From an uncultured Gammaproteobacteria bacterium (lineage in GTDB: Bacteria; Patescibacteriota; Microgenomatia; CAZETR01): DNA of 64,000 nucleotides. Within the stretch, counting starts at the first letter, position 1, and each line of letters opens with the position of its first letter. A program made the position numbers and the translations under genes. The notes beneath the pieces are model-generated. The model saw only the letters and a program-made list of their open reading frames with translations. It did no database searches and had not been told where the DNA came from. The stretch lies in the NCBI GenBank assembly GCA_964514545.1, contig CAZETR010000011.1, forward strand, positions 26,294 to 90,293, given 5' to 3'. Below are positions 21,901 through 58,145 of this stretch, piece by piece.

Positions 21901-21934
21901 AGATTAAGGTGAATTACGGGCAGTCTGAAAAAAC

Positions 21935-22435
21935 TTATATTTTTCGATGTTCCTGTTCGATTCGCCCGTTCGGGCGATCAGTATCGTCCTGAATTCGAAT
22001 AACGTCATCAAGTTGTGGCGAGGAAGCTTCGATTAAAATTAGATCTGTTAAAGCTTCTATCCTGTGTACGCCCGGGGGATTAACGTAGATTATGTGGCCC
22101 GGTCCGAGTTCTTGCGATGACACAATCTCACCAGTATCTTTATCTTCGTAATATAATATTGCTTTCCCGCTAAGTATAAAATTGTGTTCTCGCTTTTCTT
22201 TGTGATATTGGAGGCTTGTCTTTGTACCATTTTTAAGGCCTATTATTTTGAATGCGTACGAACCCTCACTGCCATCGGCAATCCAGATTTCAAAACCCCA
22301 CGGTTTTATTACTAATTTTGCTTGGGCTAAATTAAAAATTTGAAGTTCTTCGGGAAGGTTATCGGGATAAAGTTCATGTCTTCCTGTTCGTGTAAAGTTA
22401 ACAATCTGTTCAAACATTTTAATTTCTGCGCTCAT
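21935..22435 (-). CDS. Cupin-2 protein resembling the type II phosphomannose isomerase (ManC C-terminal) domain
   Basis: KPWGFEIWIA...FKII...GTKTSLQYHKEKREHNFILSGKA parallels RPWG...VKRI...LSLQMHHHRAEHW. Confidence 0.6.
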   Translation of the reverse strand: MSAEIKMFEQIVNFTRTGRHELYPDNLPEELQIFNLAQAKLVIKPWGFEIWIADGSEGSYAFKIIGLKNGTKTSLQYHKEKREHNFILSGKAILYYEDKDTGEIVSSQELGPGHIIYVNPPGVHRIEALTDLILIEASSPQLDDVIRIQDDTDRPNGRIEQEHRKI

Positions 22436-22501
22436 CTTGATTTGATATCTTTCTGGAGTTTTATATACTACTCAGCTACCGAGTGTCAATAATTTCTTGG
22501 C

Positions 22502-23371
22502 TCATTTGCCGAGATTCCTTACGGGAGTTGTGTGTTTGTATATACCACGACTAACTAGTGAGTATCTTGGGACACCTTGGTCATCATCGATGGAGGCAAA
22601 TAATTCTCTTGTTGGGAGCGAAAGGCGGAGTGGTAATATGTCAATCCGGCTGGGATCTTTTTCTAATTCAAACGGGGCCTCGTGCGTGTAGCGGCTAAGT
22701 TTATAGCCTAATAGGCTGTTTAGGAATTGGAATGGACTTTGGGGGTTTACTTTGAACCCTATTCTATTTATAAGAGCTGAGAGCGTGAATATTGGTCGAG
22801 ATAGCGTGGGTGACCATTTGTTTATATCCTTTTTCATCATTGCGATTAGGAACTCCTTTCTAAATATTCCCAAAAGGGAAATTAGGTAATAAGAATGTCC
22901 AGATTTTCTAATAGCAACCCAGTCTTTTATTCTCAGTACAGCGGTATCTGAGTACGTCTGGTGATTAAATTTCACCCCACTGAATGACTTTTTGAATCTG
23001 CCGAAGTGCCACCAAGATATGGGGAGATAATCGCTTCTACTTTTCTGCATTTCTTGGACTAGGTTTTTATATATCGTTTGCGGAGCTAAGTTAAGGTGGT
23101 CCTCGTTCCAAATAAGAATGTAGTTATGTTTGGCTTTTTGGATCATTTCCAAGGCGTTATTAATCCAACCGTTAGCGTCATTTAGAAGCTGGAAGAGTAT
23201 CATTCTGGGACCGAGCTGTTTTTTTAAATATTCTATTGCCTGATCTCTATATGGACCTCGGACATTTATTAACCAGTTGTCACTGACTTTGTCGAATGAC
23301 TTAAATGAATCTTTTAAGTGTTGAAGTTTATCTGGACTGTTTATTTTTAGATTTCCAAGAATTGTTAGCAT
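22502..23371 (-). CDS. Hypothetical protein (possibly GT-A-like)
   Basis: 289-aa soluble ORF immediately downstream of wzt. Contains NEDH; no secure family. Confidence 0.4.
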   Translation of the reverse strand: MLTILGNLKINSPDKLQHLKDSFKSFDKVSDNWLINVRGPYRDQAIEYLKKQLGPRMILFQLLNDANGWINNALEMIQKAKHNYILIWNEDHLNLAPQTIYKNLVQEMQKSRSDYLPISWWHFGRFKKSFSGVKFNHQTYSDTAVLRIKDWVAIRKSGHSYYLISLLGIFRKEFLIAMMKKDINKWSPTLSRPIFTLSALINRIGFKVNPQSPFQFLNSLLGYKLSRYTHEAPFELEKDPSRIDILPLRLSLPTRELFASIDDDQGVPRYSLVSRGIYKHTTPVRNLGK

Positions 23372-23374
23372 TAC

Positions 23375-24607
23375 TTAACTTATTTGATAATTAAGGAGAA
23401 GGCTGCCTTCTGATTGCAGTGGCAATTGTCCGGTTTTGTAGTAATCACCAAACTCTACACTGAAGTTGCCTGCTTTTTGCACCCAGTCCAGGATGTCGCC
23501 ATTTTGGTCTACTGTGATGAGGGTAAATTGATATCTTCCAGGGGTTAATGGAAGATTGCTGATTTTAACCTTTATCACGCCGTCGGATGTACTTATATGT
23601 TGGTTAAAGATTTTATTGCTTATAAAGGCAATTCGGTTTTGCGAAACAAAATCGTCTATGCTAAGGGCAAAATCGATTTTTTTGACAGCCGGGTCAATTA
23701 TATTAAACTCTATCCAGAAGTAGGCGTCCTCCCCGCTTCTAAAGAAATTGACACTCTTTCCTAGGCTGTCTTTGAAAAACACGCGGGTAATTCTTAGCCT
23801 ACCACTTCCCTGTCTGTCTTTTCGATCTTTAAGAGAAATCTTACTTGTTTCGCCCGACATTTTCAGATACTCGGCAATTACTTTGCGTGAATCACCCGAT
23901 TTGACTAATTTTCCTTTGGAGAGGAGCAGTGATCTGGGACAGAGTGATTGAATCGCGCTCATGTTGTGGCTTACAAAAATTACTGTTCTTCCGCTTTTGG
24001 CAACGTCCTGCATCTTGCCGATACTTTTTTTCTGGAACCTGGCATCTCCTACTGCCAATACTTCGTCAACCAGTAGAATTTCCGATTCTAAAAATGCGGC
24101 GATTGAAAATGCTAGGCGAGTATACATGCCTGAGGAATAGTGTTTCACGGGTGTATCCAAAAATTTTTGGATCTCGGAAAAATTCACTATATCGTTGTAT
24201 TTCTTTTTAATTTCCGTTCTACTCATTCCGAGGATTGATCCATTTAGGAAAATATTTTCTTTTCCGGTTAATTCCGGATGAAAACCGGTTCCCACCTCCA
24301 GTAAACTGGCTACTCGCCCGCGAAGATTAATTTGTCCCTGTGTTGGGGGTGTTATCTGGCTGAGTACTTTTAAGAGTGTACTTTTGCCTGCTCCGTTTCC
24401 GCCGATTACTCCTAGCACCTCTCCTTGACCTACGTTGAAAGATACATTTTTCAAGGCCCAAAGGGATATGGCGGGAGCCTTTAGAATTGGCTGAATTTGT
24501 GGAAATTTGATAATTTTAGCAATCGAATCCCGAAGTGCGTGATATGGCTGACGCTCCCCCAGGGCATATTCTTTGGATAAATTTTTGACTTCTATGATTG
24601 GCTCCAT
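23375..24607 (-). CDS. wzt: ABC transporter ATP-binding protein Wzt/TagH-type with C-terminal carbohydrate-binding extension
   Basis: Walker A GGNGAGKST, signature YSSGMYTRLAF, Walker B ILLVDE. A ~160-aa β-rich C-terminal extension resembles Wzt_C. Confidence 0.9.
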   Translation of the reverse strand: MEPIIEVKNLSKEYALGERQPYHALRDSIAKIIKFPQIQPILKAPAISLWALKNVSFNVGQGEVLGVIGGNGAGKSTLLKVLSQITPPTQGQINLRGRVASLLEVGTGFHPELTGKENIFLNGSILGMSRTEIKKKYNDIVNFSEIQKFLDTPVKHYSSGMYTRLAFSIAAFLESEILLVDEVLAVGDARFQKKSIGKMQDVAKSGRTVIFVSHNMSAIQSLCPRSLLLSKGKLVKSGDSRKVIAEYLKMSGETSKISLKDRKDRQGSGRLRITRVFFKDSLGKSVNFFRSGEDAYFWIEFNIIDPAVKKIDFALSIDDFVSQNRIAFISNKIFNQHISTSDGVIKVKISNLPLTPGRYQFTLITVDQNGDILDWVQKAGNFSVEFGDYYKTGQLPLQSEGSLLLNYQIS

Positions 24608-24613
24608 TTTGGG

Positions 24614-25429
24614 TCAGATGATGTCTGCTATATATTTTTCTGTGTGTTTGAAGTAAGCAAGTCCTGAGGCAAAAATTATGACAGCTGAAGTTATGGATGT
24701 AATAATAACCGGCCAATTAAGAATCACTGTCCCGGACAATGCCTCTCTGGATGAATCAATGACTGCGGTCATGGGATTTAGCGCCATAATTAATTTATTT
24801 GTGGAGCTGACAATACTTAAGGGATATATCACGGGAGTGACAAATAGCAGAATTTGAATAAAGAATGGAAGGATATACCTAACGTCGCGAAATCGAACGT
24901 TTAGAGCGCTGGTAAATAAGCTAAGTCCGGCAGAGGTTACGGTGGTTAGCAGAATTGCAAGTGGAATAATCAATATCGCGTAGATAGATGGCGTGAATTT
25001 TAGTACCAGGGAATAGAGTATTAATATAATAAGATTAATGGTGAAGTCTACAAAGCTGACAAGTATGGATGATAGCGGGAGAAAAATCTTGGGAAAATAG
25101 ACTTTTTTGATCAGATTTTCATTTTCAATCAAAGAATTACTGGCATGGCTGAGTACCCCCGAAAAAAAATTCCAGAAAACTAATCCCCCTAGAACAAAAA
25201 GCGAGTATGGCAATTTACCTGAGGAAATGCGAGCTAATTTTCCGAAGAAAACAGTGAATATAATCATGGTTGTAACGGGTTGAAAAACTGTCCATGCAAT
25301 CCCCAGGAAAGTTTGCTTATATCTAACTTTTATATCTCTCCAGGCGAAAATAAAAAATAGTTCCCGAAACCGCCACAGTTCTTTCCAGTCAATATTCCAC
25401 CAATTATTGCGGGGAGTAATTGTAATCAT
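24614..25429 (-). CDS. wzm: ABC-2 type polysaccharide export permease Wzm
   Basis: REL...RDIKVRYKQTFLGIAWTVFQP ABC-2 signature, six predicted TM helices, ATGA-coupled to wzt. Confidence 0.85.
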   Translation of the reverse strand: MITITPRNNWWNIDWKELWRFRELFFIFAWRDIKVRYKQTFLGIAWTVFQPVTTMIIFTVFFGKLARISSGKLPYSLFVLGGLVFWNFFSGVLSHASNSLIENENLIKKVYFPKIFLPLSSILVSFVDFTINLIILILYSLVLKFTPSIYAILIIPLAILLTTVTSAGLSLFTSALNVRFRDVRYILPFFIQILLFVTPVIYPLSIVSSTNKLIMALNPMTAVIDSSREALSGTVILNWPVIITSITSAVIIFASGLAYFKHTEKYIADII

Positions 25430-27471
25430 GTGCCCTGGGGGTTAAGCAAGTAGAGATTTTTAATTATCATGCTTGAGTTGCATATTAACAAATTTCTTAT
25501 TTCGAGGCGATAAAGAGAGTAGTCTTCTTTTCGACTGATGTTTAGGTTAATTGGTTTTCTGCATTTTTCCCTATCGGCAAAATATAGCATTTTGTTTTCT
25601 GCAACGAGATGTTTTAGTTCCTCCATTGGGGTGGCCTCGTAAAAGTCAAGAGGTAGAAGTTCGCAATTTACATTAAATATGTGTGTCCACCCATCTTCGG
25701 CTTTTCTAATTACATCTTCATCAGCCAGGAATAATTCCTTTTTTCCTAAAGTGCCGCACCACTTGTAAATATCCCCGGTCACTCTGTGTCTGTCTTTTAA
25801 CCAATCGTAGATATCTGTTTTGCCTAAGGCGTAGCGGATCTCTTGGGGGGAAATATATGATTTCAGTGAGTAGATTCTTTTAACATTGAAGGCAAAAAAA
25901 TACCCGGCGAATAAAAATAAAACCACTGAATATACTTTGTTTAGTTTCTTTAGACTTCTAGATTTAGAATGAAGCGATAAGGGAATAGTTAGTAGTAGAG
26001 CCAGAACTATCTGCAGAAAGTAAAAGTATCTATCAACATATCCGGTAAAATATTTGATGACAACGAAAGAGAGAGTTGAGCATGAGAGCAAAAACAGAGC
26101 TATTTTGATGGTAGGTAATCGCCGGCTCTTGAGAATTAATAATAATGCAGGAATTAAGAGTAATAGATAGATCGAGTGTCCCTTGGTTATCCCTATTGCC
26201 AGTTGAGGTAAATAAGAAAAGGAAATAGGAATGGTAGCTCCAAAAATGCTATTTGTAACCGAACAGAGTGCCTGATCGCATTTAAATACATTTCCCAGAA
26301 ATGGAAAAATTGGGTTTCCGGTAAGTGCCAAGTTTTTGAGGTACCAAAATCCTCCAAAAAAGACGAGTAGGGAAATAAGCTTAAGAATACTGCTTGGCTT
26401 TAGAATTTTAGAAAACCTCGTCACAAATTTCGCACTTTCTTCTTTGCCTGCGGGTCCTGTCGCGAGTTGTCCTTCCCGCCAGTGCTCGCGGGATTTACCC
26501 GTCTGCGCGCTGTCGGGCGTGCTCGCTGACGCTGTGCCTTGCAGTGCAAGCCTTCCTCTCGCACCACCCGCGTTATTTGTAGACGCAAAACTTATTGCTG
26601 TGTAGGCCAACCAAACCACGAAAATGGTATAGGATGTGGCAAAAGGAACCAGAGATGGATATTTGCTGCCAATAGACATGGCACTAAACACCATACTTGC
26701 GTAAAGGTAATTGGCGGTTTTGGTCAGAATAAACTCAATCATTGTAATCATGCCAAGTACTGTTAGGGCGGCCGTTGAGTAGTCTATATATCCGGAAGTA
26801 GCAACTATTAATAAATCGTGATTTAGAAACAAAAAAATCCAAAGAAACGCAAAAGCTGATAGGTGTGATGTGCGTGATTTAAACCATGCGTAAATGGCGC
26901 TGACGGACGAATAAAAAATCGCAAAATGAAGAAGGCGCGTGGGAGAGTAAGTTTTGGTAAGTGAAAATGGAATCGCAAAAAAAAGGTCTAGTTCTTTCGG
27001 AAGGCTCGGGTGGACGCTTTCATAATCTATTTTCCAGGTTGAGTTGTATGTTTCGTATGGCGACAAGAAGTGATACTGCATCTCGTCCGTGAGATACGGG
27101 GGAAGAGAGCTCTTGACGAGCAAGATCGGAAGAAATATTAGTATGGGCATGATTGATAGCAGATTTGCTTTTATAAAAACCGTGAGTGAGCGCCACTCGC
27201 GGTTTTTTATATAACTTGGTAGAGCAATTATTAGTAACGGAACCAGTGACCAAAGCACATAGTTGGGTCTTATGGGAATAAGAAACCTAAGCCAGAACCA
27301 CTCAAAAACGATTGCCCCTACTCCATAGATCCAGATTGCCGGACGGATAAAACTGGGGGACTTAATGAATTTCTTGTCTATAAATACGCCTAATACGTCA
27401 AAGTATACAAAGAGTCCAAGGGAGATTAACAGAAGGAGGGGCGAGAGGGGCCTGAAGTATTCAGATAACAT
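25426..27471 (-). CDS. Large polytopic membrane protein, PPY-DEM-YH family paralog 1 (putative GT-C-like), with GC-rich in-frame insertion
   Basis: Conserved loop motif SSLPPYLTDEMQYHF, plus LTKTYSPTRLL and SGYIDYST, all shared with 27474..29396 and 33138..34928. Has a soluble C-terminal domain. A ~60-aa low-complexity insert (STNNAGGARGRLALQGTASASTPDSAQTGKSREHW...) is absent from paralog 2. Confidence 0.6.
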   Translation of the reverse strand: MLSEYFRPLSPLLLLISLGLFVYFDVLGVFIDKKFIKSPSFIRPAIWIYGVGAIVFEWFWLRFLIPIRPNYVLWSLVPLLIIALPSYIKNREWRSLTVFIKANLLSIMPILIFLPILLVKSSLPPYLTDEMQYHFLSPYETYNSTWKIDYESVHPSLPKELDLFFAIPFSLTKTYSPTRLLHFAIFYSSVSAIYAWFKSRTSHLSAFAFLWIFLFLNHDLLIVATSGYIDYSTAALTVLGMITMIEFILTKTANYLYASMVFSAMSIGSKYPSLVPFATSYTIFVVWLAYTAISFASTNNAGGARGRLALQGTASASTPDSAQTGKSREHWREGQLATGPAGKEESAKFVTRFSKILKPSSILKLISLLVFFGGFWYLKNLALTGNPIFPFLGNVFKCDQALCSVTNSIFGATIPISFSYLPQLAIGITKGHSIYLLLLIPALLLILKSRRLPTIKIALFLLSCSTLSFVVIKYFTGYVDRYFYFLQIVLALLLTIPLSLHSKSRSLKKLNKVYSVVLFLFAGYFFAFNVKRIYSLKSYISPQEIRYALGKTDIYDWLKDRHRVTGDIYKWCGTLGKKELFLADEDVIRKAEDGWTHIFNVNCELLPLDFYEATPMEELKHLVAENKMLYFADREKCRKPINLNISRKEDYSLYRLEIRNLLICNSSMIIKNLYLLNPQGT
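26445..26572. repeat. GC-rich hairpin-rich island inserted in-frame in a membrane-protein gene
   Basis: About 130 nt of much higher GC than its surroundings. Contains stems CGCGAG/CTCGCG, TCCCGC/GCGGGA and CTTGCA/TGCAAG. Corresponds to the extra loop insert relative to the paralog. Confidence 0.45.
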
Positions 27472-27473
27472 CG

Positions 27474-29396
27474 CTATAGCTTGTACGAAACAGAATTATT
27501 TATTTTTTGAGGATCGAAGAGATAAACATTTTTTACAACCGGGGTGGAGTTACAGACAAGTAAGTTTCTAACCTCTTCCCTAAAAATAACCCTGTTTTCT
27601 TCTCTGGTAATACTAAGGTTGTATCGATCGCGGCAAGCTTTTCTATCTGCCAAATATAGTTTCTTGTTTTGTTTTACCATCAAATTAAATGCTTCAATTG
27701 GCGTGGAACCTGTAAACTCGGTAGCAATCAATTTACAGTTAACGTTAAATATCTGGCCCGGGCTCTCGTCCGGGTCGTGTATGAGCCACTCATCGATCAG
27801 CTCCAGCTCTTTTTCTCCGGGAGTACCGCACCAGGCGAACAAATCGCCGTTGTGTCGATGCCGGTCTTTAAGCCAATCAAAAATGTTTGTTTTTCCAAAA
27901 GCGAAATTTATTTCCTGGGGCGAAACATAAAATCTCGTGGAATAGATTGTCTTTGTCGTTGATGATAGTTTTCCAATGAGGAAAGAAAGAAGAATTATTT
28001 TGTAGCTTATGAGTAAAACTTTTCCAGTGGGACTCTTGAGCTTTATGGCAAATGGTAGAGCTAACACTAGTGTCAAAATTATTTGGAGGAAATAGAAGTA
28101 TCGGTCGACAAAGCCCGAGAATAGTTTAATGATGGGAAATACAATTGTCCCGCTAAGGAGAAGAAATGTCGCAATTCTAGTTAGTTGGGGCTTTCTTCCG
28201 ATAATTAAAATTAGGGCTGCTGGGATCATCAAGGCCACTAAGATCGAGTTTCCCCTAGTGGCGCTAATTACTATTTGAGGGAGATTTGACAAAGTTAAGG
28301 GTGTAGTCCAACTGCCAAAAAAACCTTCGGTGCTATAACAATTATTAAACCTGCACTTAAAAACGTTGGAAAGGAAAGGGTAGAGTGGGTTACCTGTGTA
28401 AATCCAGGTTTTAATATACCAAAACCCGCCGAACAAAACTAGAATAAAAATTATTCTAAGTATCAGAGCTTTGCTGAGAAGTTGTTTGTGTCGGTTTATG
28501 ATGCCCCATCCTGATAGAAGAGTCATCGATACAACAAAAGGGGCCAGGCCGGGGAGTTTGCTGCCAATTGTCAGTCCCCAGAAAGCAAAGCTGGCCATAA
28601 GGACTCCCGGATTAGTACTTAGAAAGTATTCGATCAAGGTAACGATGCCAAGAGCGGTTAGAGAAGCGGTGGAGTAATCTATATAACCGCTAGTTGCCAT
28701 GATGAGCATGTCGTGGTGGAGAAACAAATAAAGAAGTGAAAAAATGGCGGCCGCCCGTAAATTGCTCCGGGACTTGAACCATGCATAAATGGACCAGATT
28801 CCGCTATAAAGAATCATGAAGTGCAGAAGTCTGGCCGGAGCAAATGTTTTGGTGAGTGCAAAAGGAATATTTAAAAAAAGATCCATTTCTTTGGGCAAAT
28901 TTGGATAAAACCTGTCATTGAAAATCCATAATCCGGTTTTAAAGTCCTTGGGTTGGGTCCAGGTAACGTGATTTGCCTCAAAGGGGGACATGAAGTGATA
29001 GGCCATTTCGTCCGTGGTGTATGGAGGCAGAGAGCTTTTGACAAAGAGAATTGGCAGGAATATGGCTAGGGGGATGAGCAGAAAAGCATTACTTTTTATG
29101 AAGACAAATAGTTCAAGCCAGTTTTTGTTTTTTATATAACTCGGGACCGAAATGACGGCCAGTGTGATCAAGGCTAAAAATATCGGTAGGGAGCGTAAGG
29201 GGAAAAAGAAATGAACAAAAAAACTAACAATAACCACCACGCCTAACCCAAAAAACCAGATCACGGGGCGGAGAAATTGGGGGGATTTAATTAGACGCTT
29301 ATCGACGAATATGCCTAACGCGTCGAGAAAAAGGAAAAATATGATTACAAACCCAAGTAGGCCTGGTGTCAGTGGTTTAAAATATTCGGAGAGCAT
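27474..29396 (-). CDS. Large polytopic membrane protein, PPY-DEM-YH family paralog 2 (putative GT-C-like)
   Basis: SSLPPYTTDEMAYHF, LTKTFAPARLL, SGYIDYST. The C-terminal domain is conserved with paralog 1 (SPQEI.FAFGKTNIFDWLKDRHR). Confidence 0.6.
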   Translation of the reverse strand: MLSEYFKPLTPGLLGFVIIFFLFLDALGIFVDKRLIKSPQFLRPVIWFFGLGVVVIVSFFVHFFFPLRSLPIFLALITLAVISVPSYIKNKNWLELFVFIKSNAFLLIPLAIFLPILFVKSSLPPYTTDEMAYHFMSPFEANHVTWTQPKDFKTGLWIFNDRFYPNLPKEMDLFLNIPFALTKTFAPARLLHFMILYSGIWSIYAWFKSRSNLRAAAIFSLLYLFLHHDMLIMATSGYIDYSTASLTALGIVTLIEYFLSTNPGVLMASFAFWGLTIGSKLPGLAPFVVSMTLLSGWGIINRHKQLLSKALILRIIFILVLFGGFWYIKTWIYTGNPLYPFLSNVFKCRFNNCYSTEGFFGSWTTPLTLSNLPQIVISATRGNSILVALMIPAALILIIGRKPQLTRIATFLLLSGTIVFPIIKLFSGFVDRYFYFLQIILTLVLALPFAIKLKSPTGKVLLISYKIILLSFLIGKLSSTTKTIYSTRFYVSPQEINFAFGKTNIFDWLKDRHRHNGDLFAWCGTPGEKELELIDEWLIHDPDESPGQIFNVNCKLIATEFTGSTPIEAFNLMVKQNKKLYLADRKACRDRYNLSITREENRVIFREEVRNLLVCNSTPVVKNVYLFDPQKINNSVSYKL

Positions 29397-29426
29397 CGTG
29401 CCGTCTCATCATACATGGTCACCCTT

Positions 29427-31268
29427 TTAACTTGAAACGACCTGTTTTACTTTCTTGGCGGGGTTTCCGACGGCGATAGTATTTTTGGCAATGTTTTTGG
29501 TAACTACACTTCCCGCACCGATAACAGCGTTATTCCCGATTGTAATCCCCTTTAGAATTATCGCATTTGTTCCAATAAAAACATTCTTTCCAACTAGTAC
29601 TTCCCGGGATTTAATGTTTGCTTTGTTGAAGCGGCGATTCGTGCTATCTATCGGATGAAAATCCGTATCGAGAATTATGCTGTTCGCTCCAACCAAAGTC
29701 CCTTCGCCAATATTAATACTTCTTGCGGCACAGATAACTCCACCCGTAATTCCCACGTTGTCGCCGATAGAAATTGATGCTCCTTTTTCCCACGTGGTTA
29801 AGATTAGCGGGTGATTTACTCCAAGAGGATTTGAATATTTCCAATTGCGCACCTCAACTCCATCCCCTATCCTGATGCTACTATTTTTATGTTTCATAAT
29901 TTTGGGAAATCCATACCATTTGGTGTTTTTGCCTACGCTCACTCCCAATGCTTTGAGATAAACCAGAATTAGTGGATGGTAAATCATGCGTTTTATCTCT
30001 AAAGTAACTTTCCACACAGCACCAAAGCCGGTAATTGTTTCTCTAATTTTAGTTATTTCTATTTTTGCTTCTTCTTTTGAAGGCATGAATTCCTTAAGGA
30101 TGAGGAGAACGACTACAAATTGAATTAAGCCCAAGATAGTTAGCATTGGTTCGTAATTAAGAGTGAGGAATACCGGCCCACCTGTTCCTAATCTATATCT
30201 GACCCAGATACTGTAGAGGTGAATAGCAATTGAGAGAAACCAATATAGTCGGATTCTAGGATTCTCGAAAATATAGAATAGAAGAAGGATCGACGCATTG
30301 TAAAAGTGGTTGGCATGGGCCTGGATGACAATCTGGGGCAATAAGACTGAGGATAAGGTGTAAGTGTCAAGCAAGCTACTTCTTTTTCTTAAAATTGAGA
30401 GTGTAATGAAAATAGTCATTATCGTAAGCGTCAAATACAAAGTTATGTCGGTAATTGTGTGACTAAAGTATGGGGTGTAGATAGGGCCTGATTTATGTAC
30501 AATGCTCTGGATTAACCTAACAATTGGGTGCCAAATATTTACTTCCGATCCCACGAGTACGGGAAATGTATTCTTAACTTGTGTCAGTCTCCATGCAAGA
30601 TAAAATATCGATTGGCCGCTTATTTTGAAATAGATTGAAAAGGCAATGAAAGGGACGATAAAGCCGGAAAAATAATTTAGGGCTGCTTCTATGTGCTGAT
30701 GCACAACTTCCTTAAGTACTAGGAAGATAGCTGCTCCAAGAACTAGTGACTGTGCTTGTGGCTTTGCCATAAATGCCAGTCCCAACATTAGTCCTGAGAA
30801 AAAGGCCTTGTGCTTTACCTTTATGAATTCTTGCCAGATGGCGGCAGAGAGAAGAATAAAAAACGCCATAAGTGAGTCCCAGAAACCTTGCCAGGCTGAG
30901 ATTATAATGAACCATGGGTTAAGCCAATATAATCCAAGCATTTGGAGTTTTTTATTCGGGAAAAGAACTAGCAATAACTTAAGTATTGCTAGTTCAAAAA
31001 TTAAATTGGAAACCTTGAAGGGAAGGAACCAAAGACTGGGAATGGTTTTGGCAATACACGCATCTATTCCGTAGAAAATATAGGTAATGGGAAAATAGAC
31101 TCCGTAAAAAGCATTTGAGAGGCCTTTTTCACAGACGTCTTTGCCCCACGCGTAATAAGCGTCTTTCATATCATGCATCCCCTCTACAAATAACCCGGGA
31201 AACCTTAGGGTCAATCCGACGGCAAAAAGAAGGCCAAGTAAGATTGTTTTGTTGTATCTACGCTTCAT
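29427..31268 (-). CDS. Fusion protein: N-terminal ~400-aa polytopic membrane (GT-C-like) domain plus C-terminal left-handed β-helix (hexapeptide) acetyltransferase domain
   Basis: The C-terminal repeats IRIGDGVEV...ISIGDNVGITGGVIC...INIGEGTLVGANSIIL...VLVGKNVFIGTNAIILKGITIGNNAVIGAGSVV are typical of Mac/LacA-like acetyltransferases. The N-terminus has more than ten hydrophobic helices. Confidence 0.7.
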   Translation of the reverse strand: MKRRYNKTILLGLLFAVGLTLRFPGLFVEGMHDMKDAYYAWGKDVCEKGLSNAFYGVYFPITYIFYGIDACIAKTIPSLWFLPFKVSNLIFELAILKLLLVLFPNKKLQMLGLYWLNPWFIIISAWQGFWDSLMAFFILLSAAIWQEFIKVKHKAFFSGLMLGLAFMAKPQAQSLVLGAAIFLVLKEVVHQHIEAALNYFSGFIVPFIAFSIYFKISGQSIFYLAWRLTQVKNTFPVLVGSEVNIWHPIVRLIQSIVHKSGPIYTPYFSHTITDITLYLTLTIMTIFITLSILRKRSSLLDTYTLSSVLLPQIVIQAHANHFYNASILLLFYIFENPRIRLYWFLSIAIHLYSIWVRYRLGTGGPVFLTLNYEPMLTILGLIQFVVVLLILKEFMPSKEEAKIEITKIRETITGFGAVWKVTLEIKRMIYHPLILVYLKALGVSVGKNTKWYGFPKIMKHKNSSIRIGDGVEVRNWKYSNPLGVNHPLILTTWEKGASISIGDNVGITGGVICAARSINIGEGTLVGANSIILDTDFHPIDSTNRRFNKANIKSREVLVGKNVFIGTNAIILKGITIGNNAVIGAGSVVTKNIAKNTIAVGNPAKKVKQVVSS

Positions 31269-31971
31269 CTGCCCTTAATTTGATTGTGATAATGTCTATA
31301 ATCATCCTTGTTCCAAGTTTGAGAGCCTTTCCAAGTGTCCCAGAGTAAGTGCTCTCTCCGGTGGGTCTCTCTTTGTAGTTAACCGGTATTTGAATTATTG
31401 ATAGATTGTTTTTGCAAGCAAGCACCATCATTTCCAGGCTGAAATCTCCTCCGTTGGCTCTGAATTGTCTTCTAATTTTTTCTAAGGCTTTTTTATGGAT
31501 AATTCGATAGGTGCAACCAACGTCTGAGAGTGAAACTGTGTTGAATAAAAACTGGACTAATTTTGCGACAACGTAGTTTCCCCATTTGAGTAAAAATCCC
31601 ATGTTCGCCCCTTCCCAAATCAATTCCTGCACTGTTCTTGTTCCAATTACGAATTGAAACTCCTTGCTGTAGCTTAGAAGTTTGAATATATCATTAGCTA
31701 CAAACGTACCGTCAGGTTCACAGATTACGATTAGGTCCCCTTTTGCCACCCTTAATCCTTTTTGAATTGCAGCGCCATATCCCTGTTTGACTTCTGGTAC
31801 CACCTTTGCACTTGTCCCTGCGGTCGTTTTTAAAACATCAAACGTGGCGTTATTATCGATAATAATAATTTCATCTATGGCTCTGGTCTTCTCGAAGTCG
31901 AGAATGCTTTTGCGAAGAGTAGCCCGCTCGTTATATGTTGGCATAACGAGTGAAAGTTTAAGTTGTTTCAT
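31258..31971 (-). CDS. GT2 polyprenyl-phosphate sugar synthase-like (Dpm1/ArnC/GtrB-type)
   Basis: LSLVMPTYNERATL... DxD region and a small single-domain GT2 typical of Dol-P/Und-P-hexose synthases. Confidence 0.8.
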   Translation of the reverse strand: MKQLKLSLVMPTYNERATLRKSILDFEKTRAIDEIIIIDNNATFDVLKTTAGTSAKVVPEVKQGYGAAIQKGLRVAKGDLIVICEPDGTFVANDIFKLLSYSKEFQFVIGTRTVQELIWEGANMGFLLKWGNYVVAKLVQFLFNTVSLSDVGCTYRIIHKKALEKIRRQFRANGGDFSLEMMVLACKNNLSIIQIPVNYKERPTGESTYSGTLGKALKLGTRMIIDIITIKLRADEA

Positions 31972-32101
31972 CTTTTATAATTTCAGGGTCATTTTTATTT
32001 TATCAGGCTCTTGCTAAAAAAATCCGTGTGTTCTTTATAAACTTGAGTTTTGTTCTTTACAAGTCTTTAGTTGTCGGTTATGTTGGCTGTGAGTTTGTTT
32101 T
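31972..32101. promoter_or_regulatory. Divergent intergenic/promoter region
   Basis: 130-nt AT-rich gap between a head-to-head minus-strand run and the plus-strand epimerase gene. Confidence 0.3.
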
Positions 32102-33106
32102 ATGAGTAGAAAAAGAACTAGTCTGGTAACGGGTGGGGCTGGGTTTATAGGGTCTCATGTGGCGAGTTATTTATTGAAAATGGGCCAGAGGGTGGTTATA
32201 CTCGATGATTTAAGTGGGGGAAGTATTTCGAATATCCCCAAAGGGGCAGTGTTCGTTAACGGGTCTATAAACGACTCCGGAGTCGTCGAGCCGATTTTTG
32301 ATATGTGTAGATTTGATTATGTTTATCATTTAGCTGCGTATGCGGCTGAGGGACTTAGTCACTTTGTTCGAAAATTCAATTATGAAAACAATTTAATGGG
32401 TTCTATTAATCTTATAAACCAGTCGATTAAATTTGAAGTCAAACATTTTGTTTTTACTTCAAGTATTGCAGTCTATGGAACTAATCAGTTGCCCATGATC
32501 GAAACTCTTATTCCAAATCCAGAGGATCCCTATGGAATAGCAAAATTGGCGGTCGAGAAAGATCTTGAGTCAGCTCATAAAATGTTTGGTCTCACTTATA
32601 CAGTTTTCCGACCCCACAATGTATTCGGGGAGAGACAAAATTTGGGAGATCCTTATCGGAACGTGATAGGGATATTTATTAATAAATGTTTAAAGGGAGA
32701 GCCGATGCAAATATTTGGCGATGGAAGACAAACAAGGGCGTTTTCGTATATCGATGATGTGGCGCCATATATAGCAAAGAGTGCCGAAGTAAAAGAAGCT
32801 TGTAATGAGATTATTAATATAGGGGCAGATCATCCTTATTCCGTGAAGGCTATTGCCGGGATTGTGGCTGAATTAATGGGATCTAAAACGAAGATAAGAT
32901 TTGTGAAAGGCCGCCAGGAGACAAAACATGCTTATTCTGATCATGCAAAGGGGAAGAGAATTTTTAACATTACAAAGACGACAGACTTTAGATCTGGGCT
33001 GTCAAGAATGATCGACTGGGCGAGGCAAAAAGATCAACTATTTACTTCGAAAGTACCAGAAATCGAGGTTGTGAAGAATTTGCCGACTGCATGGAGAGTG
33101 AAATGA
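32102..33106 (+). CDS. NAD-dependent epimerase/dehydratase (extended SDR)
   Basis: TGGAGFIGSHV Rossmann motif, YxxxK region YHLAAYAAEG...; family-level call only. Confidence 0.85.
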   Translation: MSRKRTSLVTGGAGFIGSHVASYLLKMGQRVVILDDLSGGSISNIPKGAVFVNGSINDSGVVEPIFDMCRFDYVYHLAAYAAEGLSHFVRKFNYENNLMGSINLINQSIKFEVKHFVFTSSIAVYGTNQLPMIETLIPNPEDPYGIAKLAVEKDLESAHKMFGLTYTVFRPHNVFGERQNLGDPYRNVIGIFINKCLKGEPMQIFGDGRQTRAFSYIDDVAPYIAKSAEVKEACNEIINIGADHPYSVKAIAGIVAELMGSKTKIRFVKGRQETKHAYSDHAKGKRIFNITKTTDFRSGLSRMIDWARQKDQLFTSKVPEIEVVKNLPTAWRVK

Positions 33107-33137
33107 CTGAGAACCCAAGATGTGAATTTTATGATAG

Positions 33138-34928
33138 CTATTTGCTAAAACCGGTAAATTCATAGAGGTATGGTTTTATCTTTCTTGATTTGCAAATGAC
33201 ATCGTTGTTGTTTTTTCTAAAATAATACTTGCCGTCAGAGTCGTCTACTGGCAAATTCTTGTCGCATTCAGAAAGTGAGATTGCGTAAAGTGGTTTAGCC
33301 TTTGAATAAGTTGAGAGCTCATCGCGACTGTGGGAGCAATTGGTCATAAAGATGGAAAATAATGCATCGTAGTTCCCCCAAATTAGCTCCGGGTCTGTAA
33401 CTCTAATTTGAGTGTCAGGATTTACTTCTTCGCACCATTTTATGACTCCTCCCAGTCTGGGAAAGAAAGCACGAGTCCAATCGTAAATATTTATCATGCC
33501 TTTGGCGTAGGCTAGCTCTCTGGGATTTTGCGTATAGGCTAATTTCACTGTATTTAGAGTGTTTATGGAATTGCGATAAATAAATGAGGCCGAGTAAACC
33601 ATAAGTAATAGGGCGAGTGCCTTGGGGAAAAAATGGATTTTTGACAGATTCCAAGACGCGGCCACAAAAAGAATAGTCATCAGTTGCCAATGAATAAAGT
33701 ATCTGGGTTCAAAAGCCGTAAATTTTGATGAGATTGTCCAGTCAAGAGCTAAAATAGACGTTAATAAGAGCGTGAATTTAACTGATTTCCTGTTCCGGTG
33801 AATGAGGAGAAGAATTAGGGAAATTAATAATAATTTTTCGATACTTAGAAATTGATTGAAAAGTAAAGACTTTATCTTGCTTAGATTGCTAAGGGTAATA
33901 GGAGTGGTCCAGCTGCCAAAAATGTCTGTTTTCTTAGGACATGTTTTACAGGCAAAAATTAATGGATAAACCGGATTCTTGTACAGAACCGCGTTTTTAA
34001 TATACCAGTATCCTCCAAACAGAGAAAAAATTACTAAACATGATATTAACGTGTTTCTTCTAACCGCTTTAAAATCTACAAGTAAACTTATTAGAAAAAT
34101 TGAGATTGCGCTGGAAAGAACTGAGTACTTCATGCCTACCGCCAAGGCGATAAAGCCGACTCTTCCTGCTAGTGAATTTTTGTAAAAAAAGGTGAGCAGG
34201 GCCAAAATTATAAATGCAGCGGCTGCCACGTCGACGTAACCGGATGTACTTAAAGTGAGAATGTCGGGACTGAAAAATAGGATGCCGATGTACCCTCCTG
34301 CTGCCGAGAGAGTTCCAATGTTCTCCTTTAAACAGAAGTAAACTGTAGCTGCCGCAGTTAAAAAGATCAGGAATTGCAGCAGCCTGGCCGATGCGTACGT
34401 CTTGGTTAATACAAATAGGCCCAAGGCCGCGGTTTCAAGTGATCTGGGCATACTTGAGTAGAGTCCGCCTGACAGATTCCACGATTTTTCAAAAGTAATA
34501 GTTGATGGGGACTGCCAGTGATAGGCCATTTCATCCCACATGTACGGTGGAAGAGAGAGCTTTGTAAATATTGGCTTTGCGATGATTACCAAGGGAAGCA
34601 GTAGCACTACGACATCAGGCAATATTTGTTTGAATGAAATATTAAGTTTAATCCTCGAGATTTTGGTTTTATAAAAGCAGAAGAGAAAAATCGGTAAATA
34701 TAAATCTAAAACCGTGGTCGGCTTTAGGGGATAAAAAAGGTGACCTACGTAAACCGCGAGTGTCCAAATAGCTAGGCCAAAGGTCCACCTGGTGAGCAAA
34801 AGAGCCGAGGGAAGTTTGATAAATTTCTTATCGATCCAGGTACCGACAACAAACCAGGAGAGAAAAAGTGCAAAATAAACTAAGAGGTTAAAGAAATTTA
34901 GAGGTTGAAAATAATCGAGGAGTGTCAT
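33138..34928 (-). CDS. Large polytopic membrane protein, PPY-DEM-YH family paralog 3 (putative GT-C-like)
   Basis: LSLPPYMWDEMAYHW, LTKTYASARLL, SGYVDV. Shorter C-terminal domain than paralogs 1 and 2. Confidence 0.6.
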   Translation of the reverse strand: MTLLDYFQPLNFFNLLVYFALFLSWFVVGTWIDKKFIKLPSALLLTRWTFGLAIWTLAVYVGHLFYPLKPTTVLDLYLPIFLFCFYKTKISRIKLNISFKQILPDVVVLLLPLVIIAKPIFTKLSLPPYMWDEMAYHWQSPSTITFEKSWNLSGGLYSSMPRSLETAALGLFVLTKTYASARLLQFLIFLTAAATVYFCLKENIGTLSAAGGYIGILFFSPDILTLSTSGYVDVAAAAFIILALLTFFYKNSLAGRVGFIALAVGMKYSVLSSAISIFLISLLVDFKAVRRNTLISCLVIFSLFGGYWYIKNAVLYKNPVYPLIFACKTCPKKTDIFGSWTTPITLSNLSKIKSLLFNQFLSIEKLLLISLILLLIHRNRKSVKFTLLLTSILALDWTISSKFTAFEPRYFIHWQLMTILFVAASWNLSKIHFFPKALALLLMVYSASFIYRNSINTLNTVKLAYTQNPRELAYAKGMINIYDWTRAFFPRLGGVIKWCEEVNPDTQIRVTDPELIWGNYDALFSIFMTNCSHSRDELSTYSKAKPLYAISLSECDKNLPVDDSDGKYYFRKNNNDVICKSRKIKPYLYEFTGFSK

Positions 34929-35695
34929 GGGGAGTTTGTAATGATAAGATGAGATGGAATAATTCCAAGAGTCATATAAATTATTACCCTGAATTTATTT
35001 CCTGGAAGCATTTTTACAATATCTTTTACGTACAACGGATTTAGGTTTGAATTTGAGGACCAGAATGACTTGCCTGTAAATTTACATAGAAACCGAAAAA
35101 TTTTGAGAGGAAGCCAGTGGAGAAAGAAAAATCCTGTATGTGGCTCATAAATACAACCTCTGTAAGGAGTCGTGATAAATATTTTTTTCCCAACTCGAGC
35201 TATTTCTCTTATAAATTTTGCTTGTTTGGTAAAGTTTCCTACATGCTCCAATGTTGCCCATGCTGTGGCGATATCAAATTGATTTGATTTAAACGGTAAC
35301 CTTACATTAGGTTCTATTCTAATAATTTTAATCTTCGGATATTTTTTCTTTATTTCTGAATAGTCTTCGACCGCAAGGGCCGTAATTTGTGATGGGTATG
35401 GATAGTGTTTCTCAAAATAATTTGCATCTACCATGTCCTCAGTTGGTGAGATCCCTATGTCTATAACGGTTTCGTCTGGTTTCGGTTTGTACTCACGAAG
35501 TAAGAGATTTAGCTGCTCCTTTCTGACTCGCAGAGACAAGTGACTCAAGAATCTCTTCGTGATGCCGACTTTGTTTTCCGGATTTGTAGTCCAAGTGGAA
35601 GCATTGTACTGACTCATCAAAGTTAACCTTTGTACGTTTTGAATAACTTGCTTTCCTTCAGAATGAAGCTGATATCTCTTAGTCCATCTCTCCAT
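34925..35695 (-). CDS. Class I SAM-dependent methyltransferase
   Basis: VIDIGISPTE and FDIATAWATLEHV (Methyltransf_11-like). An alternative start at 35617 would remove the 72-nt overlap. Confidence 0.6.
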   Translation of the reverse strand: MERWTKRYQLHSEGKQVIQNVQRLTLMSQYNASTWTTNPENKVGITKRFLSHLSLRVRKEQLNLLLREYKPKPDETVIDIGISPTEDMVDANYFEKHYPYPSQITALAVEDYSEIKKKYPKIKIIRIEPNVRLPFKSNQFDIATAWATLEHVGNFTKQAKFIREIARVGKKIFITTPYRGCIYEPHTGFFFLHWLPLKIFRFLCKFTGKSFWSSNSNLNPLYVKDIVKMLPGNKFRVIIYMTLGIIPSHLIITNSP

Positions 35696-36348
35696 TGATT
35701 AAGGTTGGATTTTCTGATTCTTCCATCAGGGTGGTAAGTTATGGGAACTTCCTTTAAACTTACGCCTGCTTGCCTGGCTTTGATCGTTGTTTCAGGGCCG
35801 AATTCCATTCCGGGTGAAGAGAGATTCATTTTTTGGAAGGCATTCTTCGAAAATGCCTTCATGCCACAGCAAAGATCGCTAATATGTGTCGAGCAGAAAA
35901 GATTAGCTGTCAAGGTCAATACGGGATTTCCGATATACTGGTGCGACCAGGGCATGGAACCGGGCAGAATTTTGCCTTTGTACCTGCTCCCCATCACAAC
36001 GTCATATCCTTCTCTTAGAAGTCTTATAAATCTGTCTATCTCGACTGGATCATAGCTACCATCAGCGTCTAGTTTAAGTAAATATTTGCCTTTTGCTTTT
36101 TTTAGCCCAGTGATGCAGGCATTGCCGTATCCCCTATTTCTTTCGATAATTATCCGGGCTCCGAGTTTTTTGGCAATCTCTTTTGACTTATCTGATGAAT
36201 TATTATCGCAGACAACTACTTCTCCGTTAATTTTGTGTTTCTTAAGAGCTTTAAAGCAATTTTTTACACAATTTCCGATGGTTCTCTCTTCGTTAAGACA
36301 TGGCATGACCAAGGATAGTTCAATGTTTTTTTTACTCGGTTTTTCCAC
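35623..36348 (-). CDS. GT2 polyprenyl-phosphate sugar synthase-like (Dpm1-type)
   Basis: ELSLVMPCLNEERTI...VVCDNNSSDKS...LKLDADGSYDP. Confidence 0.8.
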   Translation of the reverse strand: MEKPSKKNIELSLVMPCLNEERTIGNCVKNCFKALKKHKINGEVVVCDNNSSDKSKEIAKKLGARIIIERNRGYGNACITGLKKAKGKYLLKLDADGSYDPVEIDRFIRLLREGYDVVMGSRYKGKILPGSMPWSHQYIGNPVLTLTANLFCSTHISDLCCGMKAFSKNAFQKMNLSSPGMEFGPETTIKARQAGVSLKEVPITYHPDGRIRKSNLNQWRDGLRDISFILKESKLFKTYKG

Positions 36349-43218: not shown

Positions 43219-43231
43219 TTTTTTTAATGTT

Positions 43232-44203: not shown

Positions 44204-44207
44204 TCCG

Positions 44208-56450: not shown

Positions 56451-56453
56451 GAT

Positions 56454-58139: not shown

Positions 58140-58145
58140 GGCGAG

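Follow-up and report, generated by a model that had tools for sequence, protein, structure and literature searches.

A divergent family of probable GT-C glycosyltransferases in candidate phyla radiation bacteria, three of them encoded near a Wzm/Wzt exporter

In the group A carbohydrate system of Streptococcus pyogenes, GacI, GacJ, GacK and GacL work with the ABC exporter GacDE; systems of this type assemble a polymer in the cytoplasm for export through an ABC-2 transporter, a C55-P-sugar is produced by a short Dpm1-like GT-A enzyme, and a PMT_2-related GT-C enzyme attaches that sugar outside the cell (PMC8035078, bioRxiv 10.1101/180810). The three-component Gtr and GT136 systems, which consist of a lipid-phosphate-sugar synthase, a flippase and a GT-C enzyme, also modify polysaccharides after export, including O-polysaccharides from ABC-transporter-dependent pathways, and in the case of GT136 a GT-C protein without sequence similarity to existing families founded a new CAZy family (PMC11127046). 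Two further points of comparison are ArnC/ArnT, whose GT83 enzyme is an undecaprenyl-phosphate-L-Ara4N transferase, and the mycobacterial arabinosyltransferases AftA, AftB, AftD and EmbA/B/C, which act on Wzm/Wzt-exported galactan.

The stretch of DNA analysed here (64 kb, henceforth the window) is almost wholly given over to glycan synthesis, and has the same gene classes as Gac and the related Gram-positive transmembrane glycosylation systems of several components (CsbB/GtcA/YfhO, GtlA/GtlB and CsdA-F), arranged in one operon-like string, including three large membrane proteins (ORF1, ORF2 and ORF3) that are the subject of this work (Table 1). As in the Gtr and GT136 systems, a candidate polyprenyl-phosphate-sugar synthase (a GtrB/Dpm1/ArnC-like GT2) is encoded beside the putative GT-C genes. 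Unlike their Gac-type counterparts, the window proteins fail the PMT_2 model and carry three extra N-terminal transmembrane helices as well as a four-cysteine C-terminal domain that lacks known relatives, and there are two to three such paralogs per locus. In contrast to Gtr and GT136, the donor synthase is Dpm1-like and not a phosphoribosyl transferase, and the accessory domain is not recognisable as a CBM. A further difference from both types is that no flippase of the GtrA, Wzx, MATE or SMR kinds was recognised among the scanned ORFs or intergenic gaps of the window; flippase genes are frequently located elsewhere (PMC8035078). A GacJ-type DUF2304 gene is present elsewhere in the window. 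The mycobacterial enzymes are less similar to the window proteins than ArnT, ALG12 and PMT are, their soluble domains are much larger than those found here, and genes of the DPA pathway (UbiA-like PRTase, DprE1/2) were not seen in the window. Structure-based identity to ArnT is 13%, and none of the ArnT chains was matched at sequence level in profile searches of the PDB. Given that candidate phyla radiation (CPR) bacteria are not known to make LPS, and that the window showed no genes for lipid A, lipid A is an unlikely acceptor.

Table 1. Positions in the window of the three paralogs, their motifs and domains, and the neighbouring genes.
Feature	Coordinates	Strand	Remarks
ORF1	25426..27471	minus	681 aa; shares 50% identity with its paralog ORF2
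GC-rich in-frame insert, ORF1 only	26422..26571	minus	predicted cytoplasmic loop; outside conserved family architecture
SLPPYLTDEMQYH, ORF1 aa 122-134	27070..27108	minus	SLPPYxxDEMxYH motif
ORF2	27474..29396	minus	640 aa; used for the structure model
C-terminal extracytoplasmic (predicted) alpha/beta domain, ORF2 aa 485-640	27477..27944	minus	four invariant Cys: C523, C554, C588, C615
SLPPYTTDEMAYH, ORF2 aa 122-134	28995..29033	minus	proposed catalytic pair D129/E130 starts juxtamembrane helix 1
ORF3	33138..34928	minus	596 aa; paralog from different deep clade
SLPPYMWDEMAYH, ORF3 aa 125-137	34518..34556	minus	SLPPYxxDEMxYH motif
Wzt-type ABC ATPase	23375..24607	minus	C-terminal Wzt_C carbohydrate-binding domain
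Wzm-type ABC-2 permease	24614..25429	minus	start codon overlaps ORF1 stop (ATGA); translationally coupled
613-aa protein between GT2 and ORF2	29427..31268	minus	N-terminal polytopic membrane domain and C-terminal hexapeptide O-acetyltransferase
Dpm1/ArnC-like GT2	31258..31971	minus	237 aa, no TM helices; heads ORF2-ORF1-Wzm-Wzt string
Methyltransferase	34925..35695	minus	stop overlaps ORF3 start (ATGA)
Dpm1/ArnC/GtrB-like GT2	35623..36348	minus	241 aa; heads methyltransferase-ORF3 string

The three ORFs had been predicted from the DNA alone to be paralogs lying next to Wzm/Wzt and Dpm1-like GT2 genes, and all of this was confirmed: they are present on the minus strand where they had been placed, with the expected neighbours, and they align over their full length far beyond chance. 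Identity is 50% between ORF1 and ORF2 (E 7.6e-184, ORF2 vs ORF1), 32% between ORF1 and ORF3 and 28% between ORF2 and ORF3 (BLASTP E 1e-48). In a neighbour-joining tree computed without support values, ORF1 and ORF2 each have an ortholog in another genome that is nearer than their partner in the window, and ORF3 belongs to a separate clade. The GC-rich insert of ORF1 occurs only once in the window and is not repeated in the related loci; it matched no Rfam family, and gave a marginal RNA fold z-score (-1.98).

Both adjacent GT2s find their best PDB matches in the Dol-P-Man synthase of P. furiosus (5mlz), GtrB and ArnC, and their best NCBIfam matches in AglJ, Dol-P-hexose transferase, PpgS and ArnC; we regard the one that precedes the 613-aa protein as a candidate polyprenyl-phosphate-sugar synthase. 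For the membrane half of the 613-aa protein, a possible further GT-C, comparison with both GT-C profiles gave an hhalign probability of ~1%. The GT2 association recurs in related loci. A homolog of the 241-aa GT2 was found within 10 kb upstream in each of the nine independent tblastn-screened loci that had sufficient upstream flank; a GT2 gene stands directly ahead of the family gene in two loci (L019, L020), and in another (L018) two genes upstream of the member pair there is a 241-aa GT2. The methyltransferase is kept upstream of members in four independent loci (L001, L005, L007 and L017), and the acetyltransferase part of the 613-aa protein is conserved elsewhere as a stand-alone gene beside members. 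L001 and L018 repeat the gene order member-[acetyltransferase]-Wzm-Wzt, and Wzm/Wzt genes lie within 10 kb of members in L010, L011 and L012. A DedA/VTT gene adjoins a member in L019 only. All family members found come from Microgenomates-group CPR bacteria.

The original prediction could not assign these proteins to a known family. By thresholds this is correct for the three ORFs, none of which reached any Pfam or NCBIfam cut-off, but not for distant relatives that share the pattern PPxxxDExxYH and do pass Pfam PMT_2 (PF13231; gathering threshold 26.1 bits), a model that covers many ArnT-like/PMT-like bacterial GT-C enzymes. PMT_2 gave no match to ORF1-3 even at E<=1, and none in their close relatives, whereas two distant relatives that match the family profile at ~1e-39 to 1e-41 score 31.6 bits (P0135) and 27.3 bits (P0146); one distant relative with this pattern is named ArnT-like by JGI. 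Profile comparison with hhalign aligned the PPYxxDE of the family with the P..LNxDE of the PMT_2-positive GT-C paralogs in the window (E 3.8e-5, probability 71%), which places D129-E130 (ORF2 numbering here and below) opposite their D32-E33. Together, the passing distant relatives and the hhalign score make the link between ORF1-3 and PMT_2 one of remote homology, not of model membership.

Searches of the PDB with profiles of three and of 52 sequences returned nothing significant, their sole GT-C entry being PimE (9dm5, E 0.96, on the GlAxGxK motif), and using the PMT_2 paralogs of the window as a bridge to ArnT gave no GT-C match there either. Two function-unknown entries touch the family from another side. 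Precomputed weak matches to DUF8201 (PF26626) exist for the closest ortholog of ORF1 (P0003), for a paralog in L018 and for the distant relatives P0018 and P0019, with none recorded for ORF1-3 of the window. The LIC_10190 family membrane protein model (NF047510) matches 120-130 residues at the N-terminus, motif included, within residues 15-140 and at scores (ORF2 22.2, ORF3 20.5, ORF1 no match) below its curated cut-off of 100 bits. We found nothing relevant in the literature on PF26626 or on GT-C enzymes in Patescibacteria. Assignment to a non-enzymatic transporter family, which would have spoken against an enzyme, was not obtained.

Conservation and the predicted structure both point to a GT-C active site. 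SLPPYxxDEMxYH is found in all three ORFs, as are LTKT..RLL and SGY[IV]D, all as first described, and to these can be added FGG[FY]WYxK and NPx[YF]P. An alignment of 18 members shows S122, P124, P125, Y126, D129, E130, Y133, H134, R189, G237, K280, G323, G324, W326, Y327, N336, P337, P340 and Y433 to be invariant. In a wider superfamily of 52 sequences, at 16–57% identity, D129, Y133, D240, K280 and P337 are invariant, and little or no variation is seen in the acidic pair, D240, K280 and R432, each of them being kept by ORF1, ORF2 and ORF3; this indicates a conserved active site. D129, E130, D240, K280 and R432 are the catalytic candidates, and we assume that D129, D240, K280 and R432 share one pocket. 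The transmembrane core of the ORF2 model superposes on solved GT-C enzymes. For all GT-CA enzymes the conserved catalytic Asp has been described at the tip of juxtamembrane helix 1, within the extracytoplasmic loop that comes first after core TM1 (PMC12041299). The predicted position of D129 matches this rule: in the model it is the first residue of a helix (129-134) that directly follows TM helix 104-122, with a second short helix behind it (138-143; local pLDDT 55-68), all within the juxtamembrane loop (residues 121-160) where confidence is lowest (pLDDT 46-68). The position of the acidic pair and its alignment to the PMT_2 GT-C motif favour the suggestion, made originally from the sequence, of a GT-C-like glycosyltransferase or polymer-modifying enzyme.

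The predicted topology is in keeping with catalysis outside the membrane. ORF2 has 14 predicted transmembrane helices with both termini outside, comprising a GT-C core followed by the C-terminal soluble domain. Loops with a mean K+R of 2.1–3.2 alternate with loops in which it is low, and the low-K/R loops carry all of the invariant residues together with the six conserved cysteines. Because of this positive-inside pattern and the distribution of cysteines, the catalytic loop, as had been proposed, and the soluble domain are predicted to be extracytoplasmic. The motif does lie behind the first helix cluster, more precisely after four transmembrane helices. A soluble C-terminal domain is present as claimed, but measures ~155 aa (ORF2 485-640) rather than ~200; it is specific to this family, and no structural relative was found for it in the PDB. 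At the other end, ORF1-3 possess ~100 extra N-terminal residues that form three transmembrane helices ahead of core TM1. The idea that this module is a fused GacJ/DUF2304-like activator was rejected for lack of support (hhalign probability 0.1%).

We consider that ORF1-3 are GT-C-fold glycosyltransferases, a divergent PMT_2/ArnT-like branch that most likely adds sugars to an exported surface polysaccharide, and give this reading a probability of about 0.6. The soluble Dpm1/ArnC-like GT2s at the head of each gene string, going by their homology, would use a nucleotide sugar to charge polyprenyl phosphate with a monosaccharide on the cytoplasmic side of the membrane, and the lipid-linked sugar would then be flipped to the outer face. 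The polysaccharide backbone would be made in the cytoplasm by the GT2 and GT4 enzymes of the locus, possibly receive a cap from the methyltransferase and kinase-like proteins encoded nearby, and presumably be exported by Wzm/Wzt, the genes for which are in place. At the outer face the GT-C paralogs may bind the polyprenyl-phosphate-sugar in a membrane-embedded groove, K280 and R432 being candidate ligands of the lipid phosphate, and D129, together with E130 and D240, could activate the acceptor hydroxyl so that the sugar passes to the exported glycan. The family-specific C-terminal domain, presumably disulfide-bonded, probably assists acceptor binding. The three paralogs fall into two or more old clades, and for this reason probably act with different sugars, linkages or acceptor sites.

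Another reading is the extension or polymerisation of the glycan outside the cell, as by Emb and Aft enzymes on galactan, or the en bloc ligation of the finished polymer from polyprenyl diphosphate to its final anchor, in the manner of an oligosaccharyltransferase or ligase. In both cases the proteins would go beyond attaching single side-chain sugars; we regard this pair of possibilities as unlikely. Extension departs from the preferred explanation solely in the number of sugars added. Several observations argue against the en bloc version: the WWDxG motif of the oligosaccharyltransferases (PglB/AglB/STT3) is absent from all 18 members (no WWD or W[WYF]D[YWF]G), the fold search ranked oligosaccharyltransferase structures below the monophosphate-donor users ArnT, ALG12 and PMT, and the conserved Dpm1-like GT2 partner points to single sugars linked to a monophosphate. 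Wzm/Wzt is adjacent in only ~6 of 17 loci (the window and 16 independent loci), so the acceptor could be something else. The family might comprise PMT-type protein O-glycosyltransferases that move sugars from polyprenyl phosphate to Ser/Thr residues of proteins that are secreted or lie at the cell surface (S-layer, pilins, lipoproteins) instead of to the Wzm/Wzt polysaccharide, which strikes us as rather improbable. That these are non-catalytic GT-C-fold scaffolds like PIG-U/GAB1, or transporters of lipid-linked intermediates, is very hard to credit given the near-invariance of the acidic pair, D240, K280 and R432 over 52 sequences and their retention in all three paralogs.

Sugar addition by GT-C enzymes remains our preferred reading, and the three proteins represent an uncharacterised, lineage-restricted branch of a well-known class of enzymes, a useful annotation and no new kind of system. 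A bolder view, which we hold only tentatively and think doubtful, is that of a CPR-specific GT-C lineage with an N-out 14-helix topology brought about by the conserved three-helix module, a new disulfide-bonded acceptor-binding domain, and two to three ancient paralog lineages that act in series, beyond mere decoration, to make a major part of the surface polymer outside the membrane. If true, ultra-small bacteria would possess an extracytoplasmic assembly line resembling that of arabinan, and the proteins would found a new CAZy GT family. We know of no experimental work on the envelope glycans of CPR bacteria. For these organisms, the GT-C assignment gives a testable annotation, with candidates for the catalytic residues and for the donor-making partner genes, and with Wzm/Wzt as a candidate export route, and it reaches ~80 sequence clusters (50% identity) to which the sources consulted give no functional name. 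If activity is demonstrated, a new CAZy family would be the probable outcome, as it was with GT136, and the C-terminal domain would count as a new module for acceptor recognition.

The three membrane-protein genes predicted here (ORF1, ORF2 and ORF3) are real and intact and can be aligned end to end, with identities of 50% between ORF1 and ORF2, 32% between ORF3 and ORF1 and 28% between ORF3 and ORF2 (BLASTP E 1e-48). All three carry the motifs originally described, SLPPYxxDEMxYH, LTKT..RLL and SGY[IV]D, together with FGG[FY]WYxK, NPx[YF]P, a CxxxC-type loop and [DP]RYF. SLPPY does follow the N-terminal helices, exactly four according to the structure model and topology, which also reduce the soluble C-terminal domain from the estimated 200 residues to about 155. 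None of the three scored above threshold with any Pfam-A or NCBIfam model; the one hint was a match of NF047510 ('LIC_10190 family membrane protein') to the N-terminal 120–130 residues of ORF2 and ORF3, at 20–22 bits against a cut-off of 100. ORF1 is also interrupted in frame by some 150 nt of extra sequence with 62.7% GC (background about 40%), the sole 150-nt stretch with at least 57% GC across the 64 kb. It codes for the low-complexity segment NNAGGARGRLALQGTASASTPDSAQTGKSREHWREGQLATGPAGKEESAKF, maps to a predicted cytoplasmic loop, is missing from 17/17 other family members and has an RNA fold z-score of -1.98. There was no second copy in the window or related loci, and it may stem from foreign DNA, loop expansion or an assembly artefact.

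Genes and segments of the window discussed in the text
Feature	Position	Strand	Remarks
Sugar-nucleotide genes	19153-19671 and 40395-46311		
Wzt and the three genes after it	20491-24607	minus	
ORF1	25426-27471	minus	681 aa, intact
ORF1 insert	26422-26571	minus	
ORF2	27474-29396	minus	640 aa, intact
Membrane/acetyltransferase fusion	29427-31268	minus	613 aa
GT2 of string 2	31258-31971	minus	
ORF3	33138-34928	minus	596 aa, intact
Methyltransferase of string 1	34925-35695	minus	
GT2 of string 1	35623-36348	minus	
Possible GT-C-type gene	47810-49381		
GacL/GacI/GacJ-like triad	50184-52323	minus	compact
DUF2304 protein of triad	50184-50525	minus	113 aa, E 6.9e-16
GT2 of triad	50522-51193	minus	223 aa
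PMT_2-like membrane protein of triad	51190-52323	minus	377 aa, sub-threshold
Five tandem paralogs, second GT-C family	53134-61483	minus	538-574 aa
Sixth, more distant member	61630-63183	plus	E 7e-17 to profile of the five

An AlphaFold2 model of ORF2 (whose residue numbers are used below), built on an 18-sequence family alignment, is confident, with a mean pLDDT of 87.2 and a pTM of 0.89. In a Foldseek search of the PDB it matched ArnT (E 4.7e-5), ALG12, ALG9, STT3/OST, AglB, AftA, Pmt4 and Emb. Because no protein outside the GT-C class (a membrane glycosyltransferase fold) appeared below E 1, assignment of the modelled family to this fold is robust. Such a comparison had been proposed in the original prediction, and ArnT and a PMT (Pmt4) are indeed among the matches.

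An alignment of 52 sequences (core family and PMT_2-positive shell, 16–57% identical to ORF2) has invariant columns at G28, G50, D129, Y133, D240, K280 and P337, and at least 90% conservation at P124, P125, H134, P168, Y281, G324, W326, Y327, K329, N330, N336, P340, R432 and Y625. D129 opens a short helix (129–134), preceded by a TM helix (104–122) and followed by another short helix (138–143), so that the SLPPY..DEM region is modelled as a TM1-JM1-JM2 arrangement, the juxtamembrane loop being the least confident part (pLDDT 46–68). In a profile-profile comparison with the five PMT_2-type paralogs of the window, residues 113–278 aligned with their residues 15–175, and PPYxxDE fell on their invariant P..LNxDE (D32-E33; E 3.8e-5, probability 71%). 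The acidic motif is the predicted GT-C catalytic motif. D129, D240, K280 and R432 are assumed to share one pocket, with K280 and R432 as candidate phosphate ligands. The same comparison gives the family about 100 additional N-terminal residues, modelled as TM helices 11–36, 47–64 and 69–89 and an amphipathic helix (92–102); since P8, G28, W47 and G50 within them are family-invariant, this extension is genuine and the start was not mis-called.

Topology was derived from the model helices and the mean K+R of each connecting segment in the 18-sequence alignment, which is high in alternate segments (2.1, 2.6, 2.9, 3.0, about 4 and 1.4) and low in the others. On the low side lie the SLPPY..DEM loop (D+E 3.8 vs K+R 1.9), SGYxD, K280, NPxYP, the two-Cys loop, xRY and the C-terminal domain with its four invariant Cys. 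The positive-inside rule, along with the expectation that conserved Cys pairs are extracytoplasmic, predicts 14 TM helices, both termini outside and an extracytoplasmic catalytic loop. The acidic pair is therefore predicted outside, as first proposed, and not in a cytoplasmic loop. Other GT-C enzymes have variable soluble domains (PMC11127046, PMC8035078), and by this analogy the C-terminal domain may be an acceptor-binding module. We consider ORF1–3 very probably active GT-C transferases with an outward-facing site, and a non-catalytic role, set against a conserved and suitably placed motif, improbable.

Only 19 relatives were retrieved by a word-seeded search of 5.8 billion proteins. A fuller count came from searching 1.84 billion cluster representatives exhaustively with a profile, which gave about 80 (mostly full length) at E below 1e-100, 157 at E up to 1e-30, 1,573 up to 1e-10 and 7,886 up to 1e-3. 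Those in the core group (about 80) retain the entire architecture, C-terminal domain included. Members of the next shell (1e-33 to 1e-46) have PP[YHFL]xxDE[LM]xYH at about the same N-terminal distance and no C-terminal domain; two score above the Pfam PMT_2 threshold, one of them named '4-amino-4-deoxy-L-arabinose transferase-like glycosyltransferase' by JGI. Some close relatives have weak precomputed matches to PF26626 (DUF8201 in one output). In one-genome-per-species data, where the nearest relative is 41% identical, all 13 relative-encoding loci come from metagenome-assembled genomes. The titles of eight name Microgenomates-group CPR lineages (Amesbacteria, Gottesmanbacteria, Woesebacteria, Pacebacteria, Microgenomates, 'Patescibacteria group'); the remaining five bear generic automated labels ('uncultured Gammaproteobacteria/Pseudomonadales'), which we read as placeholder taxonomy. 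A CPR bacterium of Microgenomates type is accordingly the most likely source of the window.

In the window the genes lie in two tight minus-strand strings, each headed by a short GT2 gene and the second ending in Wzm/Wzt; the original prediction had noted the nearby Dpm1-like GT2 genes and the Wzm/Wzt exporter. String 1 runs GT2, methyltransferase, ORF3, and string 2 GT2, the 613-aa fusion, ORF2, ORF1, Wzm, Wzt; methyltransferase and ORF3, like ORF1 and Wzm, overlap by ATGA, and ORF2 and ORF1 are two bases apart. Both heading GT2 proteins are short and without TM helices. Their nearest solved relatives are Pyrococcus Dol-P-Man synthase (5mlz, E 4e-14 and 2e-6), GtrB and ArnC, and their top NCBIfam matches AglJ, dolichyl-phosphate hexose transferase, PpgS and ArnC, all below equivalog cut-offs; together these similarities indicate putative polyprenyl-phosphate monosaccharide synthases.

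The partnership recurs elsewhere. A 241-aa GT2 homolog lies within 10 kb upstream in 9/9 independent tblastn-screened loci with enough flank. In L019 and L020 the gene directly ahead of the family gene is a GT2, and in L018 a 241-aa GT2 is two genes upstream of the member pair; of the family's associations, the GT2 partnership is therefore the strongest. The link to Wzm/Wzt is strong in one clade and not universal. An Amesbacteria locus (L001; L002–L004 are the same locus) has the window order of methyltransferase, three family paralogs, hexapeptide acetyltransferase, Wzm, Wzt, methyltransferase and cupin, and L018 has GT2, a 402-aa gene, a 580-aa paralog, a 595-aa member, Wzm and Wzt. Wzm/Wzt also lie within 10 kb of a member in L010, L011 and L012, and are absent from that distance in the other loci, L019 and L020 included. 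In a neighbour-joining tree without support values, ORF1 and ORF2 group with the Wzm-adjacent members, and each is nearer to an ortholog in another genome (P0003 and P0002); ORF3 falls in a different deep clade. Other genomes likewise draw single members from two or three of the clades. The paralogs thus date far back and are probably non-redundant. In L019 only, a DedA/VTT-domain gene (11941-12549 of that locus) adjoins the family member. DedA proteins have been proposed as polyprenyl-phosphate recyclers, and one beside a GT-C releasing polyprenyl phosphate outside the cell would fit.

Wzt has a Wzt_C carbohydrate-binding domain and is followed by a 289-aa gene without assignment, a cupin-fold gene and a kinase-fold gene (469 aa, weak APH match). 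In L001 the gene directly after Wzt encodes a TylF-type methyltransferase, and a homolog of the 469-aa protein (29% identity) lies downstream. These genes are compatible with a capped, ABC-transporter-dependent polymer, and with Wzt resemble a WbdD-like kinase/methyltransferase system for chain termination, with the Wzt binding domain as its reader. The fusion protein of string 2 joins a polytopic membrane domain of about 390 aa, for which no family match was found, to a WbbJ/WcaF-like hexapeptide O-acetyltransferase that in L001, L005 and L018 is a stand-alone gene (172–189 aa) in the same position. Its membrane half has GT-C-like strings (GfwD..., GLAfmaK), but its hhalign probability against the GT-C profiles is only about 1%.

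Glycan synthesis (GT2, GT4, GT-C, methyltransferases, sugar-nucleotide enzymes) accounts for nearly all family-assigned ORFs of the window, whose 64 kb yielded no tRNA, no tmRNA and no Rfam match at gathering threshold. The five tandem paralogs of the second GT-C family are 26–30% identical to the first, share an invariant LNxDE, and in three of five cases pass the PMT_2 threshold. Counting these, the sixth member, ORF1–3, the PMT_2-like protein of the triad and possibly 47810-49381, the window may hold at least 10 GT-C-type genes. A DUF2304 homolog, 42% identical, stands beside a GT2 in L008. Sub-threshold top matches in the sugar-nucleotide block are GmhA (SIS), an HddA-type heptose-7-phosphate kinase (GHMP) and a sugar-1-phosphate nucleotidyltransferase, accompanied by a transaldolase-like protein, a GFO/IDH/MocA oxidoreductase and a KdsC-like phosphatase, which hints at a pathway for NDP-heptose or another higher sugar; in L020 the family member is flanked by a comparable set (SIS, TAL, HAD, GHMP, GFO, SDR, NTP-transferase, epimerase).

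The gene arrangement matches extracytoplasmic post-export glycosylation, in which a Dpm1/GtrB-like enzyme would make a polyprenyl-phosphate-sugar, the lipid-linked sugar would be flipped to the outer face (no flippase for it was found in the window) and the GT-C enzyme would attach it there to an extracytoplasmic polymer. The nearest parallel is group A Streptococcus, where the GacDE ABC transporter exports rhamnan, GacI (a short GT-A) and GacJ (DUF2304) make GlcNAc-P-Und, and GacL, a PMT_2-type GT-C, adds GlcNAc (bioRxiv 10.1101/180810, PMC8035078); GacJ, whose family is DUF2304, activates the Und-P-GlcNAc synthase GacI. The same logic underlies the Gtr and GT136 systems as well as the galactose modification of ABC-dependent O-polysaccharides in Klebsiella (PMC11127046).

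The GT-C-like interpretation is supported. Fold, motif conservation and placement, rule-based topology, the GT2 partner class and the coupling of genes to Wzm/Wzt come from the analyses above; chemistry, donor and acceptor we infer. The donor is likely a polyprenyl-monophosphate-sugar. That the acceptor is the Wzm/Wzt polymer, to which the coupling in the window points, has roughly even odds; less likely rivals are a protein O-glycosyltransferase role and an extension or ligase role. For the combined reading, an active outward-facing GT-C transferase with such a donor and acceptor, we estimate a probability of about 0.6. None of the sources checked gives the family a functional name. Current PMT_2 and NCBIfam models miss it, and some of it seems to be listed as a DUF already. 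Two features set it apart, a three-helix N-terminal extension that also occurs in the wider PMT_2-related shell and a four-cysteine C-terminal domain all its own; even so, this is a family of GT-C glycosyltransferases in a well-described type of pathway.
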